A stretch of DNA of 16,761 bases from a virus, in IMG/VR virus record IMGVR_UViG_3300029881_000057. One strand, 5' to 3'. Position numbers and translations under genes: made by a program. The notes beneath the pieces are model-generated. The model made no database searches. It was not told the origin of the DNA and worked only from the letters and a program-made list of their open reading frames with translations. This document shows, in pieces, positions 9,723 through 16,761 of the stretch; position 1 is the first letter of the stretch, and the number at the start of each line of letters is the position of its first letter.

Positions 9723-10757
9723 ATGGGTAAGTATTATGACGGTACTAAACTATTGTCTATGCTTGACATAAATGGATACAAACCAGAAATATATATGTGT
9801 ACAACTAATCGTACTGGTGGTAAAACTACTTACTTTGGTAGATTATGTATAAACAGGTTCTTAGATAAGGGCGAAAAATTTGGTCTTATTTATAGATATA
9901 ATTATGAACTTGATGATGTTGTAGATAAGTTCTATAAAGACTTAGGTAGTTTGTTCTTTAGTGGTCATGAAATGACTAGCAAACGTAGGGCAAGTGGTAT
10001 ATTCCATGAATTGTTTTTAGATGATAAAAGCTGTGGATATGCTTTAAGCCTTAATAGTGCAGACCAGATTAAAAAATATAGTCACTTATTTTCAGATATT
10101 ATGCGTATGATATTTGATGAATTTCAGAGTGAAACTAATCACTATTGTAATGATGAAGTTAAGAAGTTACTTAGTGTTCACACTTCTATTGCTAGAGGAC
10201 AAGGTGAACAGGTTAGATATGTTCCAGTTTATATGCTTAGCAATCCAGTAAGTATTATAAACCCGTACTACGTTGAAATGGGAATAAGTGCTAGGCTTAA
10301 AGATGATACCAAGTTCCTACGTGGAGACGGTTTTGTGCTTGAACAAGGTTTTATATCTAGTGCAAGTGAGGAGCAGAAAAGTAGTGGATTTAATAGAGCT
10401 TTTGCAAAGAACGCTTATGTTGCTTATAGTAGTGAGTGTGTTTATCTTAATGATAACAAAAGTTTTGTTGATAAGCCAACTGGTAAAAACCGATATATTT
10501 GTACACTAAAATACAAAGGTACTGATTTTGGTTTGAGAGAATTTACAGAGGACGGTTTTATCTATTGTGATGATAAACCAGATGTTACATTTAAGACTAA
10601 AATAACAGTAACAACAGCAGACCATGAAGTGAACTATGTTATGTTAAAAAGAAATGACTTCTTTTTGTCAAACCTTAGATATTTATTTGAACGTGGTGCG
10701 TTCAGATTTAAGGATATGAGGTGTAAAGAAGCGGTACTTAGTGCATTGAGTTACTAA
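9723..10757 (+). CDS. DNA encapsidation (packaging) ATPase, phi29 gp16-like
   Basis: Walker A TNRTGGKTT, Walker B MIFDEFQSE, and MLSNPVSIINPYY parallel remembered phi29 gp16 (GARGIGKS, IVFDEFIRE, CLSNAVSVVNPYF). 344 aa. It is the only convincing plus-strand gene. Confidence 0.9.
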   Translation: MGKYYDGTKLLSMLDINGYKPEIYMCTTNRTGGKTTYFGRLCINRFLDKGEKFGLIYRYNYELDDVVDKFYKDLGSLFFSGHEMTSKRRASGIFHELFLDDKSCGYALSLNSADQIKKYSHLFSDIMRMIFDEFQSETNHYCNDEVKKLLSVHTSIARGQGEQVRYVPVYMLSNPVSIINPYYVEMGISARLKDDTKFLRGDGFVLEQGFISSASEEQKSSGFNRAFAKNAYVAYSSECVYLNDNKSFVDKPTGKNRYICTLKYKGTDFGLREFTEDGFIYCDDKPDVTFKTKITVTTADHEVNYVMLKRNDFFLSNLRYLFERGAFRFKDMRCKEAVLSALSY

Positions 10758-11410: not shown

Positions 11411-13426
11411 TTACCTCATTTCATACGGTGTGTCGATAAGTAGGATACCGCCACGTATTCTCTTTGGTCTTAATTTTCCTGGTACTTTTAGTCCTACTCT
11501 AAAATCACTAAGATTTCTCTTTATTGGTTTACCAGTTTCCTTTTCAAATAAGAACTCTTTTTCATCTTCTGTCCATTCCTTAAACACATTTGTTGTTTTA
11601 TCTGTGTACCCTTTAATGTCAGCGTTTCCATCAAGTGACTTTTGAAATAAGTCTTTACATCTTTGTGGCATACCTGCACACTTAATGTTATTGTATGGGT
11701 TGTCTATTGGTTCACAATCTTCCTTAACAACGTGTTCAATATAAGTCTTTTGTCTTGTGAAAACTGCTATATCCCAACAGCTTTCAAGTTTCCAACAACA
11801 GAAGTCTTTATCATGTACCTTAATACCAACAATCTCATTAGGTTCAAGGTCGCAATGTATGCTGTCTGTATCTGCATATATAAAACCTCTTTTGTCTTTA
11901 CCATGGTAGTTCTTCTGAGCGGCTCTAATAGTAAAGTTTCTTGCGTAACTCGTGATAGCTGAACCAACTGGTATATAACCCGGCTTTTTGTCTGCTTGTG
12001 CAACAGGTAGAAAGCCTATGGTTTTATCCTCTTTGACGTAAGCAAGTTTGAAACTACTATCCATACTACTTGCCATTTTACCGTACAAATTGTTGAGGAA
12101 CAACTTTGCCAACTCACGCAACGCACCTTTGCTTTCCAATTTGATTTTCTTATACTTATCAATGTACTCGTCAAAGATACCTATTTCACTATAAAACCAA
12201 CAACCGTCTAATATCTCAAAGTCAACAAGTTCATAGTGTTCTTTCAATAACTCATAGTCAGTCATTGTTAAAACTAACTCTACTCTAGTGTCGTGAATGT
12301 TACCGTCTTTATCAGTATAATGTGTATAATATTCTCCTGTCCTTTTGTCGTACACATCAGACGTTTCAAGTGCTTCTGTACCTTTGTACAGTAATGACGA
12401 TTTTATTTGTATAAATGGTAATTTATCTGGTTTAATGTAGAACCTTGTCTTTACTCTAACAAAGTAATACTTATCTTCATCAAGTGCGACGTCTGGAATA
12501 AAATTTCCTTTCCAAAATCGTGGTACACCAATGGGATACCTATTTCCACTTTCACTACTCATCATACTAGGGTACAAAGAATTAACATCTGCTGTCGTTC
12601 CGTTTGTAAATATATTGTTCTCTTTACCCTTTACTAGATAGCACCAACCCCCCCTATATGATTTACGGATATACTCTCCTGCGTTTGGGTATCTGTGTGC
12701 TTTCTCGTCAATCGTCATAGCGTACACATCTGGAAACATTTCGTTGTAATCAAGAGCGTTCTTTGTTGAGGACTTACAAATTGACTTGTATTCTTCCAAA
12801 CAACATGAACCTATTGTCAATTTGTTATGCCCTTGTTGGAACATTATTTCTAACGCTTCTTTGACTACAAGAACATCATTAGCTATGTACTTTCTTTCTT
12901 CGTCTGTTATAGTACAACCTGCATACCTAAAACCAGTGTACTCCATATCAAGTTTCTTGTGCTTTGTACCAAAACTTTCTCCGATACGTTTTACACTGAA
13001 TGGTAGTAGTTTTAACGAATCTCTTATCTCAATAAAGTGATTGTTTACCTTTATGATAATGCTGTACCACATACCTTTATCAGATATGCTATACTTGAAT
13101 GATTTATTTTCCATGTATTTTTCTGGTAACCATTCTACATCATTTTCGTTTTCTCCTACCTTTTTATATGCTTGCTTAAAACCCTTATCAACTAACAAAT
13201 ACGATAACCAAAATGCACCATCAAATTTCAAATTATGATAGTACGCTACTATGTTGCATTTTTGTGCTAGAAAATAATCGAATTGTTCTCCAATGCTATG
13301 AAATATGTTTACATCTTCTGTGAACAATTCAACGGACGCACTAGCCCATACTTCTGTGTTTACCTGTCCTTTGTAAACGGTTGTCTCAAAGTCACACATG
13401 AAGTAACGATACTTTTTTACTCTCAT
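11411..13426 (-). CDS. Protein-primed family-B DNA polymerase (phi29 gp2-like)
   Basis: ExoI FMCDFETT, ExoII YYHNLKFDGAFWL, ExoIII YIANDVLVV, motif A DVNSLYPSMM, motif B KLFLNNLYGKMAS, motif C YADTDSIH, and KTYIE. Each is nearly identical to remembered phi29 polymerase motifs. 671 aa. Confidence 0.95.
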   Translation of the reverse strand: MRVKKYRYFMCDFETTVYKGQVNTEVWASASVELFTEDVNIFHSIGEQFDYFLAQKCNIVAYYHNLKFDGAFWLSYLLVDKGFKQAYKKVGENENDVEWLPEKYMENKSFKYSISDKGMWYSIIIKVNNHFIEIRDSLKLLPFSVKRIGESFGTKHKKLDMEYTGFRYAGCTITDEERKYIANDVLVVKEALEIMFQQGHNKLTIGSCCLEEYKSICKSSTKNALDYNEMFPDVYAMTIDEKAHRYPNAGEYIRKSYRGGWCYLVKGKENNIFTNGTTADVNSLYPSMMSSESGNRYPIGVPRFWKGNFIPDVALDEDKYYFVRVKTRFYIKPDKLPFIQIKSSLLYKGTEALETSDVYDKRTGEYYTHYTDKDGNIHDTRVELVLTMTDYELLKEHYELVDFEILDGCWFYSEIGIFDEYIDKYKKIKLESKGALRELAKLFLNNLYGKMASSMDSSFKLAYVKEDKTIGFLPVAQADKKPGYIPVGSAITSYARNFTIRAAQKNYHGKDKRGFIYADTDSIHCDLEPNEIVGIKVHDKDFCCWKLESCWDIAVFTRQKTYIEHVVKEDCEPIDNPYNNIKCAGMPQRCKDLFQKSLDGNADIKGYTDKTTNVFKEWTEDEKEFLFEKETGKPIKRNLSDFRVGLKVPGKLRPKRIRGGILLIDTPYEMR

Positions 13427-14115
13427 AGTGGACTACTAAAATCTTCTTCCTGTTCCATTGCGTCCATCATTTCAGCCTTAAACAGTGGTCCTGCTTCTGG
13501 TAAATAGTTTAACATTTCAGACATATACTGTGTTAGCTTATCTTGTGAATAAACTATCTGATATGTTACAATCAAACCTGCTTCTGCACCGTCGTTTAAC
13601 ATTGTTGCTACATCATGTGCGTCATTTGTTGCTAATATTCTGTCCAACCATGAAAGTAATAAATTACTAGCGTGTTCATTAAACTGTCTCACATGAGCCT
13701 TAAAACCACTGATAACAACAGCATCAAAAAATGATACATCTTCTGATATGTTCTCTGGTGGAACAAAACCAGGTGTATTAGTTGGTTCTTGTACTGGCTC
13801 TGCTAGTCTGTATTTTCTAGTTTCTACCGCTTTCTTTGCTCTCAAAGAGCGTTCCAACTTTACACCCTCTGTTGCGGGTACTATTTCTCCTTCTGTTGCT
13901 AAACCACCATATAGCGCTTTCTGGTACAACTTCTCAGGTGTTAATTTTGCAAGTTTTCGCACACTTGCTTGTGTTACACGTTTAGGTCTTTGTGGTAACA
14001 CATCTTCACCAAATTGATACCCACGTTTTTCTGCTCTTCTTATAAACTGTTTAATACGCTTGACTTGTTTAGAGTAAGCACGTTCCGTAGGTGTTTGTTT
14101 TCGTCTTTTTGCCAT
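13423..14115 (-). CDS. Terminal protein (putative, phi29 gp3-like)
   Basis: It lies immediately upstream of the polymerase and is translationally coupled to it (ATGA overlap at 13423-13426). The N-terminus is basic (AKRRKQTPTERAYSKQVKRIKQFIRRAEKRGYQF), resembling the phi29 TP N-terminus (AEYARLVKNTKAKIARTKKKYGVDL). The C-terminus is acidic. I prefer the ATG at 14115 (RBS AGGGGTGA) over the GTG at 14124. Confidence 0.6.
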   Translation of the reverse strand: MAKRRKQTPTERAYSKQVKRIKQFIRRAEKRGYQFGEDVLPQRPKRVTQASVRKLAKLTPEKLYQKALYGGLATEGEIVPATEGVKLERSLRAKKAVETRKYRLAEPVQEPTNTPGFVPPENISEDVSFFDAVVISGFKAHVRQFNEHASNLLLSWLDRILATNDAHDVATMLNDGAEAGLIVTYQIVYSQDKLTQYMSEMLNYLPEAGPLFKAEMMDAMEQEEDFSSPL

Positions 14116-14140
14116 AGCGTTCACCCCTATAAATTAAATA

Positions 14141-14626: not shown

Positions 14627-14935
14627 TTATTCGTTGCCTGCTTCTTCGTCACTGTTTGCACCATTTCTAGGCGGAAGCACTTTTGCATACTGGATAAAAT
14701 CCTGCTCTGTCATTCCGTACAAAGTTTCAATTTCTTCTTTGTCTACAATGTGTACCGCTTTGAGTGTCTCAGTTTCAAGCAACGGACGAACTTTCTTCAT
14801 CAGTGCTTCATCGTCCTTGTATGTACGTGGTACTGTAACAACCTTGTTACAAGGTTCGCCTGCCTGTACGTCCAGACACATTACGTTTGCTTTTGTTGCT
14901 ACTATTGTTCTTGTTACCATAGGTACTCTTGCCAT
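14627..14935 (-). CDS. p6-like double-stranded DNA-binding (histone-like) protein, copy 2
   Basis: 102 aa with an acidic tail. MARVPMVTRTIVATKANVMCLDVQAGE... and LKAVHIVDKEEIETLYGMTEQDFIQYAKV resemble remembered phi29 p6 (MAKMMQREITKTTVNVAKMVMVDGEV...; VQVVSVEPNTEVYELPVEKFLEVATV). I moved the start to the ATG at 14935 (RBS AAAGGAGAA). The track extension to 14983 runs through a leader hairpin. Confidence 0.55.
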   Translation of the reverse strand: MARVPMVTRTIVATKANVMCLDVQAGEPCNKVVTVPRTYKDDEALMKKVRPLLETETLKAVHIVDKEEIETLYGMTEQDFIQYAKVLPPRNGANSDEEAGNE

Positions 14936-15783: not shown

Positions 15784-15819
15784 ATTATCACTCCTTTAGT
15801 GAGGTACTAGGATTACCCC

Positions 15820-16110
15820 CTAGTCCTCAACTTTATTTACTGTACGTGGCGGTAATACTTTTGCAAGTCTGATAAAATCTTCCTCATCCATACCAAGTAA
15901 TACCTCTTTACAAGTCTGTTCTTCAATGTGTACAAGTTTAAGCGTGTCAGTCTGGAAAAGATTCTGAAGCTTTTTGAGTAAATCTTCATCACTGTATTTT
16001 CCGCCAATGTCATAAGTGCGTACTTGCACCTCTGCTGTTGTGACGTCAAGCGTCATAACCTGTGCTGTTGTCTGTTCTACTGTTCTCGTTACCATTCTCT
16101 TTCTTGCCAT
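15820..16110 (-). CDS. p6-like double-stranded DNA-binding (histone-like) protein, copy 1
   Basis: 96 aa and a clear paralogue of 14627..14935. Compare MARKRMVTRTVEQTTAQVMTLDV / MARVPMVTRTIVATKANVMCLDV, TLKLVHIEEQ...LLGMDEEDFIRLAKVLPPR / TLKAVHIVDK...LYGMTEQDFIQYAKVLPPR. RBS AAAAGGAGAA. Confidence 0.55.
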   Translation of the reverse strand: MARKRMVTRTVEQTTAQVMTLDVTTAEVQVRTYDIGGKYSDEDLLKKLQNLFQTDTLKLVHIEEQTCKEVLLGMDEEDFIRLAKVLPPRTVNKVED

Positions 16111-16144
16111 AATTTTTGTTCTCCTTTTCTGTTTGATTATATCT

Positions 16145-16160
16145 CACACCTTATGGTGTG
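16145..16160 (-). other. Leader stem-loop B (CACACC-AUAA-GGUGUG)
   Basis: A 6-bp stem with the same AUAA tetraloop as stem-loop A. It lies 3 nt downstream of tRNA-like element B and 35 nt upstream of the copy-1 p6-like start codon. Confidence 0.6.
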
Positions 16161-16163
16161 GAA

Positions 16164-16208
16164 TGGTAGGATAGGGTTTGAACCTATCCACGCACCGACT
16201 GCCTACCA
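16164..16208 (-). ncRNA. tRNA-like element B (acceptor/T-arm top-half minihelix)
   Basis: On the minus strand: TGGTAGG (16208-02), a 14-nt linker CAGTCGGTGCGTGG, the T-arm ATAGG-TTCAAAC-CCTAT, then CCTACCA (16170-64). This gives a 7-bp acceptor stem and a 5-bp T-stem with a 7-nt loop in exact tRNA geometry, with no D or anticodon arms. The T-arm matches element A at 17 of 18 nt. The 5' strand overlaps the TGG-TAG end of the upstream CDS. Confidence 0.6.
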
Positions 16209-16496
16209 ATATTTTGCGTGTTTACGCTCTGCGCATATTCCAGTTCCGTCCTCTGCGCATTTTTTCATATCATAGTACGAGACATCACCAAAATATTCCT
16301 TCAAAAACCACCCTATCTGCTTTCTTGTGGTTTGACTGTATGTTCCTGTACAAAATAGTACATATTGCCCACTAGAGTGTGGCACGGCTTGAATTACTAA
16401 AGTTGTGTAGCTTATGAAGTTTATTGTGCCATTATCTTCTATTGATACACGGCACTGTGCACTTTTATGATTTGTAAGCTTTCTTGTTTCTAACAT
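16203..16496 (-). CDS. Hypothetical early protein (97 aa), first gene of the early operon
   Basis: I moved the start to the ATG at 16496 (MLETRKL...), which has GAGAGG 7 nt upstream. The track start at 16538 lies inside the proximal promoter, upstream of its predicted transcription start. I cannot place this protein in a family. Confidence 0.6.
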   Translation of the reverse strand: MLETRKLTNHKSAQCRVSIEDNGTINFISYTTLVIQAVPHSSGQYVLFCTGTYSQTTRKQIGWFLKEYFGDVSYYDMKKCAEDGTGICAERKHAKYW

Positions 16497-16503
16497 TTTA
16501 CTA

Positions 16504-16538
16504 CCTCTCTTTCTTTGTTTCTGATATAAGTATATCAT
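16504..16538. repeat. 35-bp direct repeat, copy 1 (promoter -10 plus leader)
   Basis: CCTCTCTTTCTTTGTTTCTGATATAAGTATATCAT is identical to 16602-16636. The repeat period is 98 bp. Confidence 0.95.
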
Positions 16539-16557
16539 GTTTGTTGTACCTTGTCAA
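16529..16557 (-). promoter_or_regulatory. Early promoter, proximal
   Basis: The minus strand reads TTGACA (16557-52), a 17-nt spacer, then TGATATACT (TATACT at 16534-29). Confidence 0.75.
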
Positions 16558-16601
16558 GTGTTTTCTTGTAATTCTTTTAAGTTTTTTCTTTTGTTCTCTT
16601 T

Positions 16602-16636
16602 CCTCTCTTTCTTTGTTTCTGATATAAGTATATCAT
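16602..16636. repeat. 35-bp direct repeat, copy 2
   Basis: Identical to 16504-16538. Confidence 0.95.
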
Positions 16637-16655
16637 TTGTACCGCAATTTGTCAA
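16627..16655 (-). promoter_or_regulatory. Early promoter, distal
   Basis: The minus strand reads TTGACA (16655-50), a 17-nt spacer, then TGATATACT (16632-27). The -10 and downstream leader are the duplicated 35-mer. Confidence 0.75.
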
Positions 16656-16740: not shown

Positions 16741-16761
16741 GTTTGAAGTTAAAGGGGCAAA
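16741..16761. repeat. Right inverted terminal repeat (21 bp)
   Basis: GTTTGAAGTTAAAGGGGCAAA is the exact reverse complement of nt 1-21. Confidence 0.95.

Follow-up and report, generated by a model that had tools for sequence, protein, structure and literature searches.

A tRNA top-half minihelix ahead of a p6-like gene in a phi29-like gut phage: a conserved RNA structure and candidate mRNA processing signal

Plant-mitochondrial t-elements are transfer RNA (tRNA)-like structures with the motif GGTTCRANYCC, at which RNase P and RNase Z cut messenger RNAs (mRNAs) or have been proposed to do so (Forner et al. 2007, PMC1920247). The cuts at the nad6 and ccmC t-elements fall inside the reading frames and remove the stop codon (PMC1920247). 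A structure resembling them, here called element B, was found on the minus strand (16208-16164) of IMG/VR virus record IMGVR_UViG_3300029881_000057, a stretch of 16,761 base pairs (bp), hereafter the window, which is the complete linear genome of a phi29-like human-gut phage. Element B, located between a gene coding for 97 amino acids (aa) and the gene of a p6-like protein, combines a 7-bp acceptor stem with a T-arm of 5 bp and a 7-nucleotide (nt) loop (GGUUCAAACCC) in 45 nt. Judged from the comparison of related sequences, B is a real, conserved and selected RNA structure. On balance, it probably serves as a cis-acting tRNA-like processing signal, the phage counterpart of plant-mitochondrial t-elements, in an early polycistronic transcript.

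As in t-elements, a GGTTCRANYCC T-arm and an acceptor-like stem form in B a non-canonical fold that would be embedded in an mRNA precursor beside a coding region, and a cut at B would, by analogy with nad6 and ccmC, remove the stop codon of the 97-aa gene. Unlike t-elements, B belongs to a bacteriophage with a host among the Clostridia and not to an organelle, and no common descent is implied. The phage elements, known here from sequence, are also smaller and more regular (39-52 nt), occur several per operon, and are always accompanied by a hairpin and a ribosome-binding site.

MALAT1 mascRNA and MEN-beta are examples of a tRNA-like module in a long transcript that is cut by RNase P and RNase Z, which gives a small RNA and sets the end of the long RNA; unlike B, they are eukaryotic and nuclear, serve 3'-end formation of a non-coding RNA and have a largely complete cloverleaf. 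In early mRNAs of phages T7 and SP82, RNase III cuts structured intercistronic sites and leaves protective terminal hairpins, and 5' stabilizer hairpins are known from Bacillus. The signal for RNase III is a double-stranded RNA hairpin, whereas B would be a tRNA mimic for RNase P and RNase Z. In mitochondrial tRNA punctuation, and in bacterial or phage operons with embedded tRNAs such as the T4 clusters, tRNA-shaped units between cistrons are excised and set RNA ends (PMC11143913). Relatives of the present phage likewise have real tRNAs in the same slots; B itself, unlike the units of tRNA punctuation, has lost the decoding half and is therefore limited to a processing or structural role, without translation. 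Two phage RNase P substrates that are not tRNAs have been described, the C4 antisense RNA of P1 and P7 and the M3 RNA of phi80 (PMC11143913). Like B, they mimic an acceptor-stem/T-stem stack, and they are matured by host RNase P; unlike B, they are single regulatory RNAs of Gram-negative hosts, lack a canonical T-loop signature and are not repeated gene punctuation. Precursors of CCA-less tRNAs in Bacillus subtilis also share features with B: they encode no CCA, the base behind the discriminator is not C, and a stem-loop lies close downstream. RNase P cleaves them and, on long 5' leaders, precedes RNase Z (PMC1874595), which is blocked by trailers starting with CC or CCA (PMC7479834). These precursors are complete functional tRNAs, unlike B. 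By analogy, the nearest functional analogues of B would be plant t-elements, tRNA punctuation and mascRNA-type signals, and the nearest phage precedents the C4 and M3 RNAs. The literature search found no description of tRNA-like elements in phi29-like phages or Salasmaviridae, or of phage mRNA processing of this kind by RNase P and RNase Z. No similar element was found in Bacillus phage phi29. According to a 2024 review, tRNAs are predicted in some phi29-like clusters, that of CS229P1 among them.

The acceptor stem of B is formed by the 5' strand UGGUAGG (16208-16202) and the 3' strand CCUACCA (16170-16164), and the T-arm by the stem strands AUAGG (16187-16183) and CCUAU (16175-16171) around the T-loop UUCAAAC (16182-16176). 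A 14-nt linker (CAGUCGGUGCGUGG, 16201-16188) stands in for the D arm, the anticodon arm and the variable region, and holds a conserved GG at 16196-16195. The stem, linker and T-arm are thus exactly where a sequence-only reading of this DNA had placed them. As in tRNAs, the 7-bp acceptor abuts the 5-bp T-stem, the 7-nt T-loop has U54, U55, C56, R57 and A58 with the pair G53-C61 (tRNA signature GGUUCRANNCC), and a discriminator base follows (U16163). No CCA is encoded, UCC following the discriminator, and the base at -1 (16209) is U. The T-arm sequence GGTTCAAACCC also fits GGTTCRANYCC, the motif by which t-elements were searched for (PMC1920247), and B lies between two genes of the same strand, away from predicted promoters and terminators, where it would be transcribed along with them.

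Both helices of B are maintained by compensatory change in related phages. Viral contigs were searched with both flanking proteins, which gave 14 and 53 loci, and an alignment query contributed 80 more of 260 relatives. In most of the first 53 loci, a minihelix of the same architecture and of other sequence was located just upstream of the p6-like gene. Among 44 distinct homologous elements, 95.8% of the cells were paired, compared to 37-45% when the partner strand was slid; both sides had changed at 10 of the 12 pairs, and none of 500 shuffles matched the observed score. All seven acceptor pairs covaried, as did three of the five T-stem pairs, the other two being invariant G-C pairs. The string GGTTC.A..CC, with the pair G53-C61, was invariant across the 44 relatives, and RNAalifold recovered both helices de novo. 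When a covariance model was built from a distant clade only (p6-like proteins 34-41% identical), its top match in the window was B, at full length and in register (15.8 bits, E ~0.03). The opposite strand of the element scored far lower (11.5 vs 55.1 bits). The sequence-only reading had proposed to look for uncompensated stem disruption in relatives; the outcome of this check favors the structure. In the variant TGGTAAG/CTTACCA, for instance, a G-to-A change turns the stop codon TAG into TAA, so that the stop is kept, and the other strand compensates.

The acceptor varied widely in sequence, with 40 distinct versions and 5' strands as different as TGGTAGG, TGGTAAG, TAGTGTG, AGGTGTG, GGGTACG, TGACAGG, CTGGTGT and, in phage CS229P2, TCCCGGA. 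The discriminator (A, U, C or G) and the 1-72 pair also varied, and no G3:U70 pair is present; aminoacylation identity was rejected as the conserved function on these grounds. The total length of the stacked helices was held at 12-13 bp in all types, as 7+5 (B-type), 6+6 (the C-type described below) or 7+6 (CS229P2). It had been argued from the sequence of B that only the top half of the tRNA is under selection. This was borne out, as the 12 stacked pairs and the T-loop are kept by covariation around an insert, between the acceptor 5' strand and the T-arm, of 8 to ~130 nt, and the slot of a second element of the window (element A) is occupied by a tRNA-Gln in some relatives. One locus (L028, 200-300) displayed a natural deletion, which has removed the 97-aa gene together with most of the linker and of the acceptor 5' strand. 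The promoter leader is fused there to the T-arm, 3' strand and hairpin; the remnant is a weak match (26.8 bits) and may represent a natural loss-of-function case.

The linker retained a short signature as well. GG was present in 33 of 34 distinct short linkers of the relatives (shuffle mean 27; 2 of 2000 shuffles reached 33) and GGY in 31 of the 34 (0 of 2000 shuffles). This GG resembles G18G19 of the tRNA D-loop and possibly makes a D-loop-like contact with the T-loop. The D arm, reported earlier as entirely absent, is better described as reduced to a GG-containing remnant, and calling the minihelix "bare" slightly overstates the case, because short linkers nearly always contain GG(Y).

From the window alone, B was only modestly improbable: 0.013 elements with a T-arm, a perfect 7-bp acceptor and a linker of at most 25 nt were expected per shuffled window, and 12 of 1000 shuffles had at least one. 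Single-sequence thermodynamics of B is uninformative; the 45-mer folded at -14.5 kcal/mol (z = -1.4, RNAfold) in a 5+7 register, which was rejected since sequences of group 2 (a large clade, loci L043-L068) and of the L019 type are unable to form it.

The overlap of B with the end of the upstream gene is real in the window and specific to its lineage. The upstream 97-aa gene (16203-16496, minus strand; length counted from the start codon that has a Shine-Dalgarno sequence) is in the list of open reading frames, belongs to the DUF8033 family (PF26096) and has weak PHROG matches of unknown function. Its Trp codon TGG (16208-16206) and stop codon TAG (16205-16203) lie inside the acceptor 5' strand. 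The overlap was confined to loci with this DUF8033 gene; in the others, the upstream gene stops either 3-33 nt short of the element or within the linker. Melting of the structure by a terminating ribosome, as had been suggested, is physically reasonable, yet it is not a conserved function, given the lineage-specific overlap.

A small hairpin directly downstream is an obligatory companion of these elements. At B, the hairpin CACACC-AUAA-GGUGUG (16145-16160, minus strand; -10 kcal/mol) stands 3 nt past the discriminator. All 46 distinct elements had a hairpin that started 0-3 nt past the discriminator, and in 87% of them it reached -4 kcal/mol or lower, compared to 13-15% for shuffled or random windows. 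The stems covaried (CACACC/GGUGUG; CACACA/UGUGUG in the phage record MT835814; CACCC/GGGUG; GGUACA/UGUACC; CGCC/GGCG), and each hairpin was followed by an A-rich spacer, a Shine-Dalgarno sequence and the start codon. Where a gene directly follows a promoter, as for the first gene of the window and the p6-like gene in L021, no such hairpin was found. Locus L042 repeated the order gene, minihelix, hairpin, ribosome-binding site three times in a row. In the window, the spacer between p6-like copy 1 and a 49-aa gene (15784-15819, minus strand) contains another hairpin, CUAGG-GGGUAAU-CCUAG, which has the dimensions of a T-arm (5 bp, 7 nt) without T-loop sequence.

The early operon of the window encodes three tRNA-like modules, B (45 nt), C (45 nt) and A (94 nt), each with a small hairpin 3-4 nt past the discriminator and then a ribosome-binding site and a gene; neither the constant hairpin nor module C had been listed in the sequence-only reading. 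Module A (15089-14996, minus strand) has the acceptor GGACGGU/ACCGUCC, a T-arm at 15019-15003 and the discriminator A14995, followed by the hairpin GGUACA-AUAA-UGUACC (14992-14977) and by p6-like copy 2, whose start is at 14935. Element A is not called by ARAGORN, and its T-arm alone matches the Rfam tRNA model (15 bits). It is located ~60 nt downstream of a predicted promoter (TTGACT-17-TACAAT, 15194-15166, minus strand); the leader in between holds a hairpin CCAGAG...CUCUGG, and the unit from promoter to hairpin spans ~170 nt, near the length of phi29 prohead RNA (pRNA). Module C (15567-15523, minus strand), as folded, has a 6-bp acceptor AGGGUG/CACCCU, a 4-bp D-like hairpin CGUG-ACAGG-CACG with GG in its loop, and a 6-bp T-like stem with the 6-nt loop UUCGAC; its downstream hairpin GUGUAC-AAAU-GUACAC (15519-15504) precedes an 82-aa gene (ATG 15456). 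Many relatives have C-type elements, frequently ahead of the p6-like gene; across 33 distinct relatives, 99.6% of the cells were paired, with both-sided change in 11 of 16 pairs and covariation in all three stems. A fourth type of 39 nt, GCCACA-GGUGUACC-T-arm-GGGUGGC, was also found in relatives.

The T-arms of A and B share 16 of 17 positions (16 of 18 if the 18-mer is compared), not 17 of 18 as previously counted. This high identity proves little, because 11 of the 17 positions are fixed family-wide and the A-type and B-type T-stems vary independently in close relatives. Descent of the two elements from a duplication followed by gain or loss of the tRNA bottom half was accordingly not shown; duplication of the module as a whole is plausible in view of the paralogy of the p6-like genes and of their ribosome-binding sites.

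Different RNAs, including real tRNAs, fill the equivalent slots in relatives. The slot of A holds a canonical 72-nt tRNA-Gln(UUG), called by ARAGORN, in L147 (1773-1844; 70.8 bits on the Rfam tRNA model) and L145 (2118-2189; 63.9 bits), and the hairpin, a Shine-Dalgarno sequence and the p6-like copy 2 gene (MARVPMVTRT) follow. In L108 (1987-2079) and L110 (1818-1910), the same slot holds an element of 92-93 nt that scores 45-46 bits on the Rfam tRNA model and is called tRNA-Leu(UAA) or tRNA-Phe(AAA) by ARAGORN, again with the hairpin and the p6-like copy 2 gene behind it. The slot of B is filled by minihelices of 39-52 nt. Over the two equivalent slots upstream of p6-like genes, these RNAs form a graded series, from a real tRNA (A slot) through a long tRNA-like RNA (A slot) to the bare top half (B slot, and the lone p6-like gene in group 2). 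The degenerate forms retain exactly the half that is read by tRNA-processing enzymes. A functional tRNA in the A slot must be excised, and cleavage beside the hairpin would therefore be expected there.

Intermediate relatives of the 80-locus set harbor C-type or non-tRNA-like structures upstream of the p6-like gene instead. In L101-L104, L142-L144, L148 and L150, the slot holds different structured RNAs without T-loop, followed by a small hairpin and a ribosome-binding site. Such structures include AACCCU...AGGGUU around one hairpin and ACACCC...GGGUGU around two, which may be alternative processing or stabilizing signals. In group 2, the minihelix is preceded at ~60 nt by a strong promoter (TTGACA-17-TGATATAAT), whose leader contains two hairpins. 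The second of these (CCUUUCU-UACACAU-AGAAAGG) ends 1 nt before the minihelix and may be 3'-protective or regulatory; in many loci it carries an anti-Shine-Dalgarno-like CCUCC tract.

The transcript that contains B would start at two tandem early promoters (16655 and 16557), with no promoter or terminator predicted between these and B, and would cover the 97-aa gene, B and the p6-like gene. As a processing signal, the minihelix would show to host RNase P and RNase Z a 12-bp acceptor/T-stem stack, the T-loop and probably an elbow made by the contact of GG with the T-loop. RNase P would cut 5' of U16208 (between 16209 and 16208) and RNase Z after the discriminator U16163 (between 16163 and 16162), with 16162 as the predicted new mRNA 5' end. 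The cuts would part the upstream cistron from the p6-like mRNA, the upstream cistron of this lineage losing its last codon and stop, and would leave a minihelix RNA of ~46 nt as by-product. The p6-like mRNA would then have a 5'-monophosphate end 2-3 nt ahead of the hairpin (16160-16145), which may protect it against the 5'-end-dependent decay that RNase J or RNase Y carries out in Firmicutes. B fits the known substrate preferences of the two enzymes, because U at -1 is common (55 of 85 elements), no CCA is encoded, and U follows the discriminator, as it does in 27 of 27 sequences of the B-type alignment (A2). RNase Z reportedly favors U at position 74, a preference that later papers credit to Pellegrini in 2003.

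Several observations weigh against a processing signal of this kind. The minimum-energy fold of the 161-nt context does not contain the minihelix, since the alternative pairing CACGCA/UGCGUG wins; in most relatives, GCATGG at this place makes the alternative weaker. Extraction of the elements demanded partial pairing, a bias to be counted although a filter-free covariance-model search gave the same set, and the cell counts overstate the number of independent events because the loci are related. Loci L101-L104 and L142-L144 carry a structure without T-loop, with the hairpin, at the slot, and the tRNA-like fold is therefore not the sole solution. In group 2, the element is located in the 5' untranslated region (UTR) ~60 nt after a strong promoter, and the same holds for element A; with such promoter-proximal elements, the function cannot lie in separating cistrons alone. 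In A-type and class-D elements, the discriminator is followed by C (A, then CU), which may slow RNase Z. Finally, a cut by RNase P would leave an upstream mRNA without stop codon, which looks costly unless it is regulatory.

The promoter-proximal position of the group-2 elements and of element A, which have no upstream cistron to separate and still keep the top half, the T-loop and the GG linker, agrees with a function of the excised minihelix itself. The minihelix would then be the product, probably CCA-added, and would act in trans as a tRNA-mimic decoy or sponge for tRNA 3'-end defense nucleases or toxins, for RNase P or RNase Z, for the CCA-adding enzyme or for EF-Tu, its placement before genes only ensuring early and abundant co-expression. 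Several copies per genome would suit such a role, and in plants t-elements build up as stable RNAs to which non-encoded C residues are added (PMC1920247). We nevertheless consider a role in trans doubtful: the 40 acceptors and the variable discriminator and 1-72 pair leave no conserved identity set for a synthetase or a sequence-specific partner, the tight and universal coupling to hairpin and ribosome-binding site is left unexplained, and structures that are not tRNA-like can fill the slot. A combination of both functions, namely a full tRNA-punctuation system of 39-52-nt top-half mimics whose CCA-tailed minihelices also titrate a host tRNA-directed factor early in infection, likewise appears unlikely.

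The non-tRNA structures found with the hairpin at the slot of some relatives would also suit a cis structure that is left uncleaved or is cleaved only at its 5' side, and that, without release by RNase Z, blocks RNase J or RNase Y like a 5' cap, forms a roadblock or acts on translation of the p6-like gene. The fixed position ~45-55 nt before start codons, in 5' UTRs as well as in intercistronic regions, is compatible with it, and the 5' nucleotide of the acceptor would be base-paired after a cut by RNase P. A generic stabilizer, however, needs neither an invariant T-loop nor a 12-bp stack, and the hairpin arrangement also follows tRNA-Gln, whose 3' end must be freed, so that we hold such a cis structure to be improbable as the function of B.

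A functionless remnant (decaying tRNA pseudogene, recombination scar or attP-type tRNA 3' fragment) is very hard to maintain in spite of the real tRNAs at equivalent slots and the partial deletion in L028, since compensatory changes keep both helices even between phages with p6-like proteins of no more than ~34-40% identity, the element has both acceptor strands and not a 3' strand alone, and a genome that is linear, ends in 21-bp inverted terminal repeats and codes for a putative terminal protein and a protein-primed family-B polymerase belongs to a phage that does not integrate. A role at the level of DNA or transcription (promoter, terminator or attenuator, nucleoprotein site for p6 or replication, hairpin of displaced single-stranded DNA) has hardly any probability either, because the TATAAT found 22 nt downstream of the element in close relatives is missing in group 2, no promoter or terminator is predicted at B, and the invariant positions coincide exactly with the RNA T-loop motif, with far lower bits on the opposite strand, even though strand-displacement replication does expose single-stranded DNA.

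Known RNA classes did not accommodate B. Rfam searches of the whole window and of a 1.35-kb sub-window, with E up to 10, returned nothing at B, and ARAGORN found no tRNA or transfer-messenger RNA (tmRNA) in the window. A canonical tRNA gene was rejected as there is no full cloverleaf, the acceptor strand and T-arm being 14 nt apart. The tRNA-like domain of tmRNA was rejected, pair 3-70 being G-C and not G3:U70, with no tmRNA called by ARAGORN or Rfam. The phi29 pRNA (RF00044; ~120-174 nt with a three-way junction) had no match anywhere in the window with E up to 10, and B measures only 45 nt. Mimics of the bacterial Y RNA/YrlA type were discarded, with no Rfam match and no long terminal helix past the 7-bp acceptor. 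The scan for intrinsic terminators was empty at B, where UUCCACACC without U-tract follows the helix, and no promoter was predicted there, the -35 region being poor.

The genome in the window is complete, linear and protein-primed, as shown by 21-bp inverted terminal repeats (TTTGCCCCTTTAACTTCAAAC) at 1-21 and 16741-16761. Its genes include those of a protein-primed family-B DNA polymerase (11411-13426, minus strand; Pfam DNA_pol_B_2, PHROG 1907), a phi29-type single-stranded DNA-binding protein, and a phi29-type packaging ATPase (9723-10757, plus strand). By synteny with phi29, the position of the terminal protein is taken by a 233-aa gene (13423-14124, minus strand), which had no Pfam or PHROG match. 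Genes for p6-like double-stranded DNA-binding proteins are present in two paralogous copies (PHROG 6370). Copy 1 (96 aa; 15820-16127, minus strand, with ATG at 16110 and the Shine-Dalgarno sequence AAAGGAG at 16127-16121; PHROG 6370, E = 3e-5) is the gene served by module B. Two tandem strong predicted promoters of sigma-70 type (16655-16627 and 16557-16529, minus strand; TTGACA-17-TATACT, 11 of 12 matches, with TG) precede the early genes, which are on the minus strand. This region (16529-16655) is a duplication, in which TTGACA-17-TGATATACT occurs twice, 98 bp apart, each time followed by the same TATATCAGAAACAAAGAAAGAGAGG leader and a ribosome-binding site; an A/G-rich stretch without convincing gene comes after the first copy. 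The window is 92% identical to MT835814, an unannotated phage record from human feces, and contigs encoding the p6-like protein place the phage in many human gut metagenomes. Its cultured relatives are the Clostridium phages CS229P1-3, which infect Clostridium symbiosum (DA229). The minihelix of CS229P2 (OP172773) occupies ~1916-1969, ahead of the p6-like gene at 2085.

If the proposed cleavage is true, element B and its relatives would be, within the literature searched, the first system resembling tRNA punctuation or t-elements in a bacterial virus. They would also represent natural, evolutionarily kept, minimal in vivo substrates of RNase P and RNase Z, with 39-52 nt and stacks of 7+5 or 6+6, with or without a D-like hairpin, and would provide a compact and portable "cut here and stabilize" cassette for synthetic operons in Firmicutes. 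Annotators have in these elements a reason not to label them odd tRNAs or overlook them, and the graded series from tRNA to top half bears on the idea of the tRNA top half as an independent functional unit. The cultured pairs of CS229P1-3 and C. symbiosum DA229 make the mechanism directly testable. Should the excised minihelices serve the second purpose as well, a single module would both shape the phage mRNAs and disarm or hijack the host, through a defense nuclease or toxin acting at acceptor ends or through the tRNA maturation machinery. Processing at such signals could explain how tiny protein-primed phages set the stoichiometry of their abundant early proteins, such as the p6-like protein.

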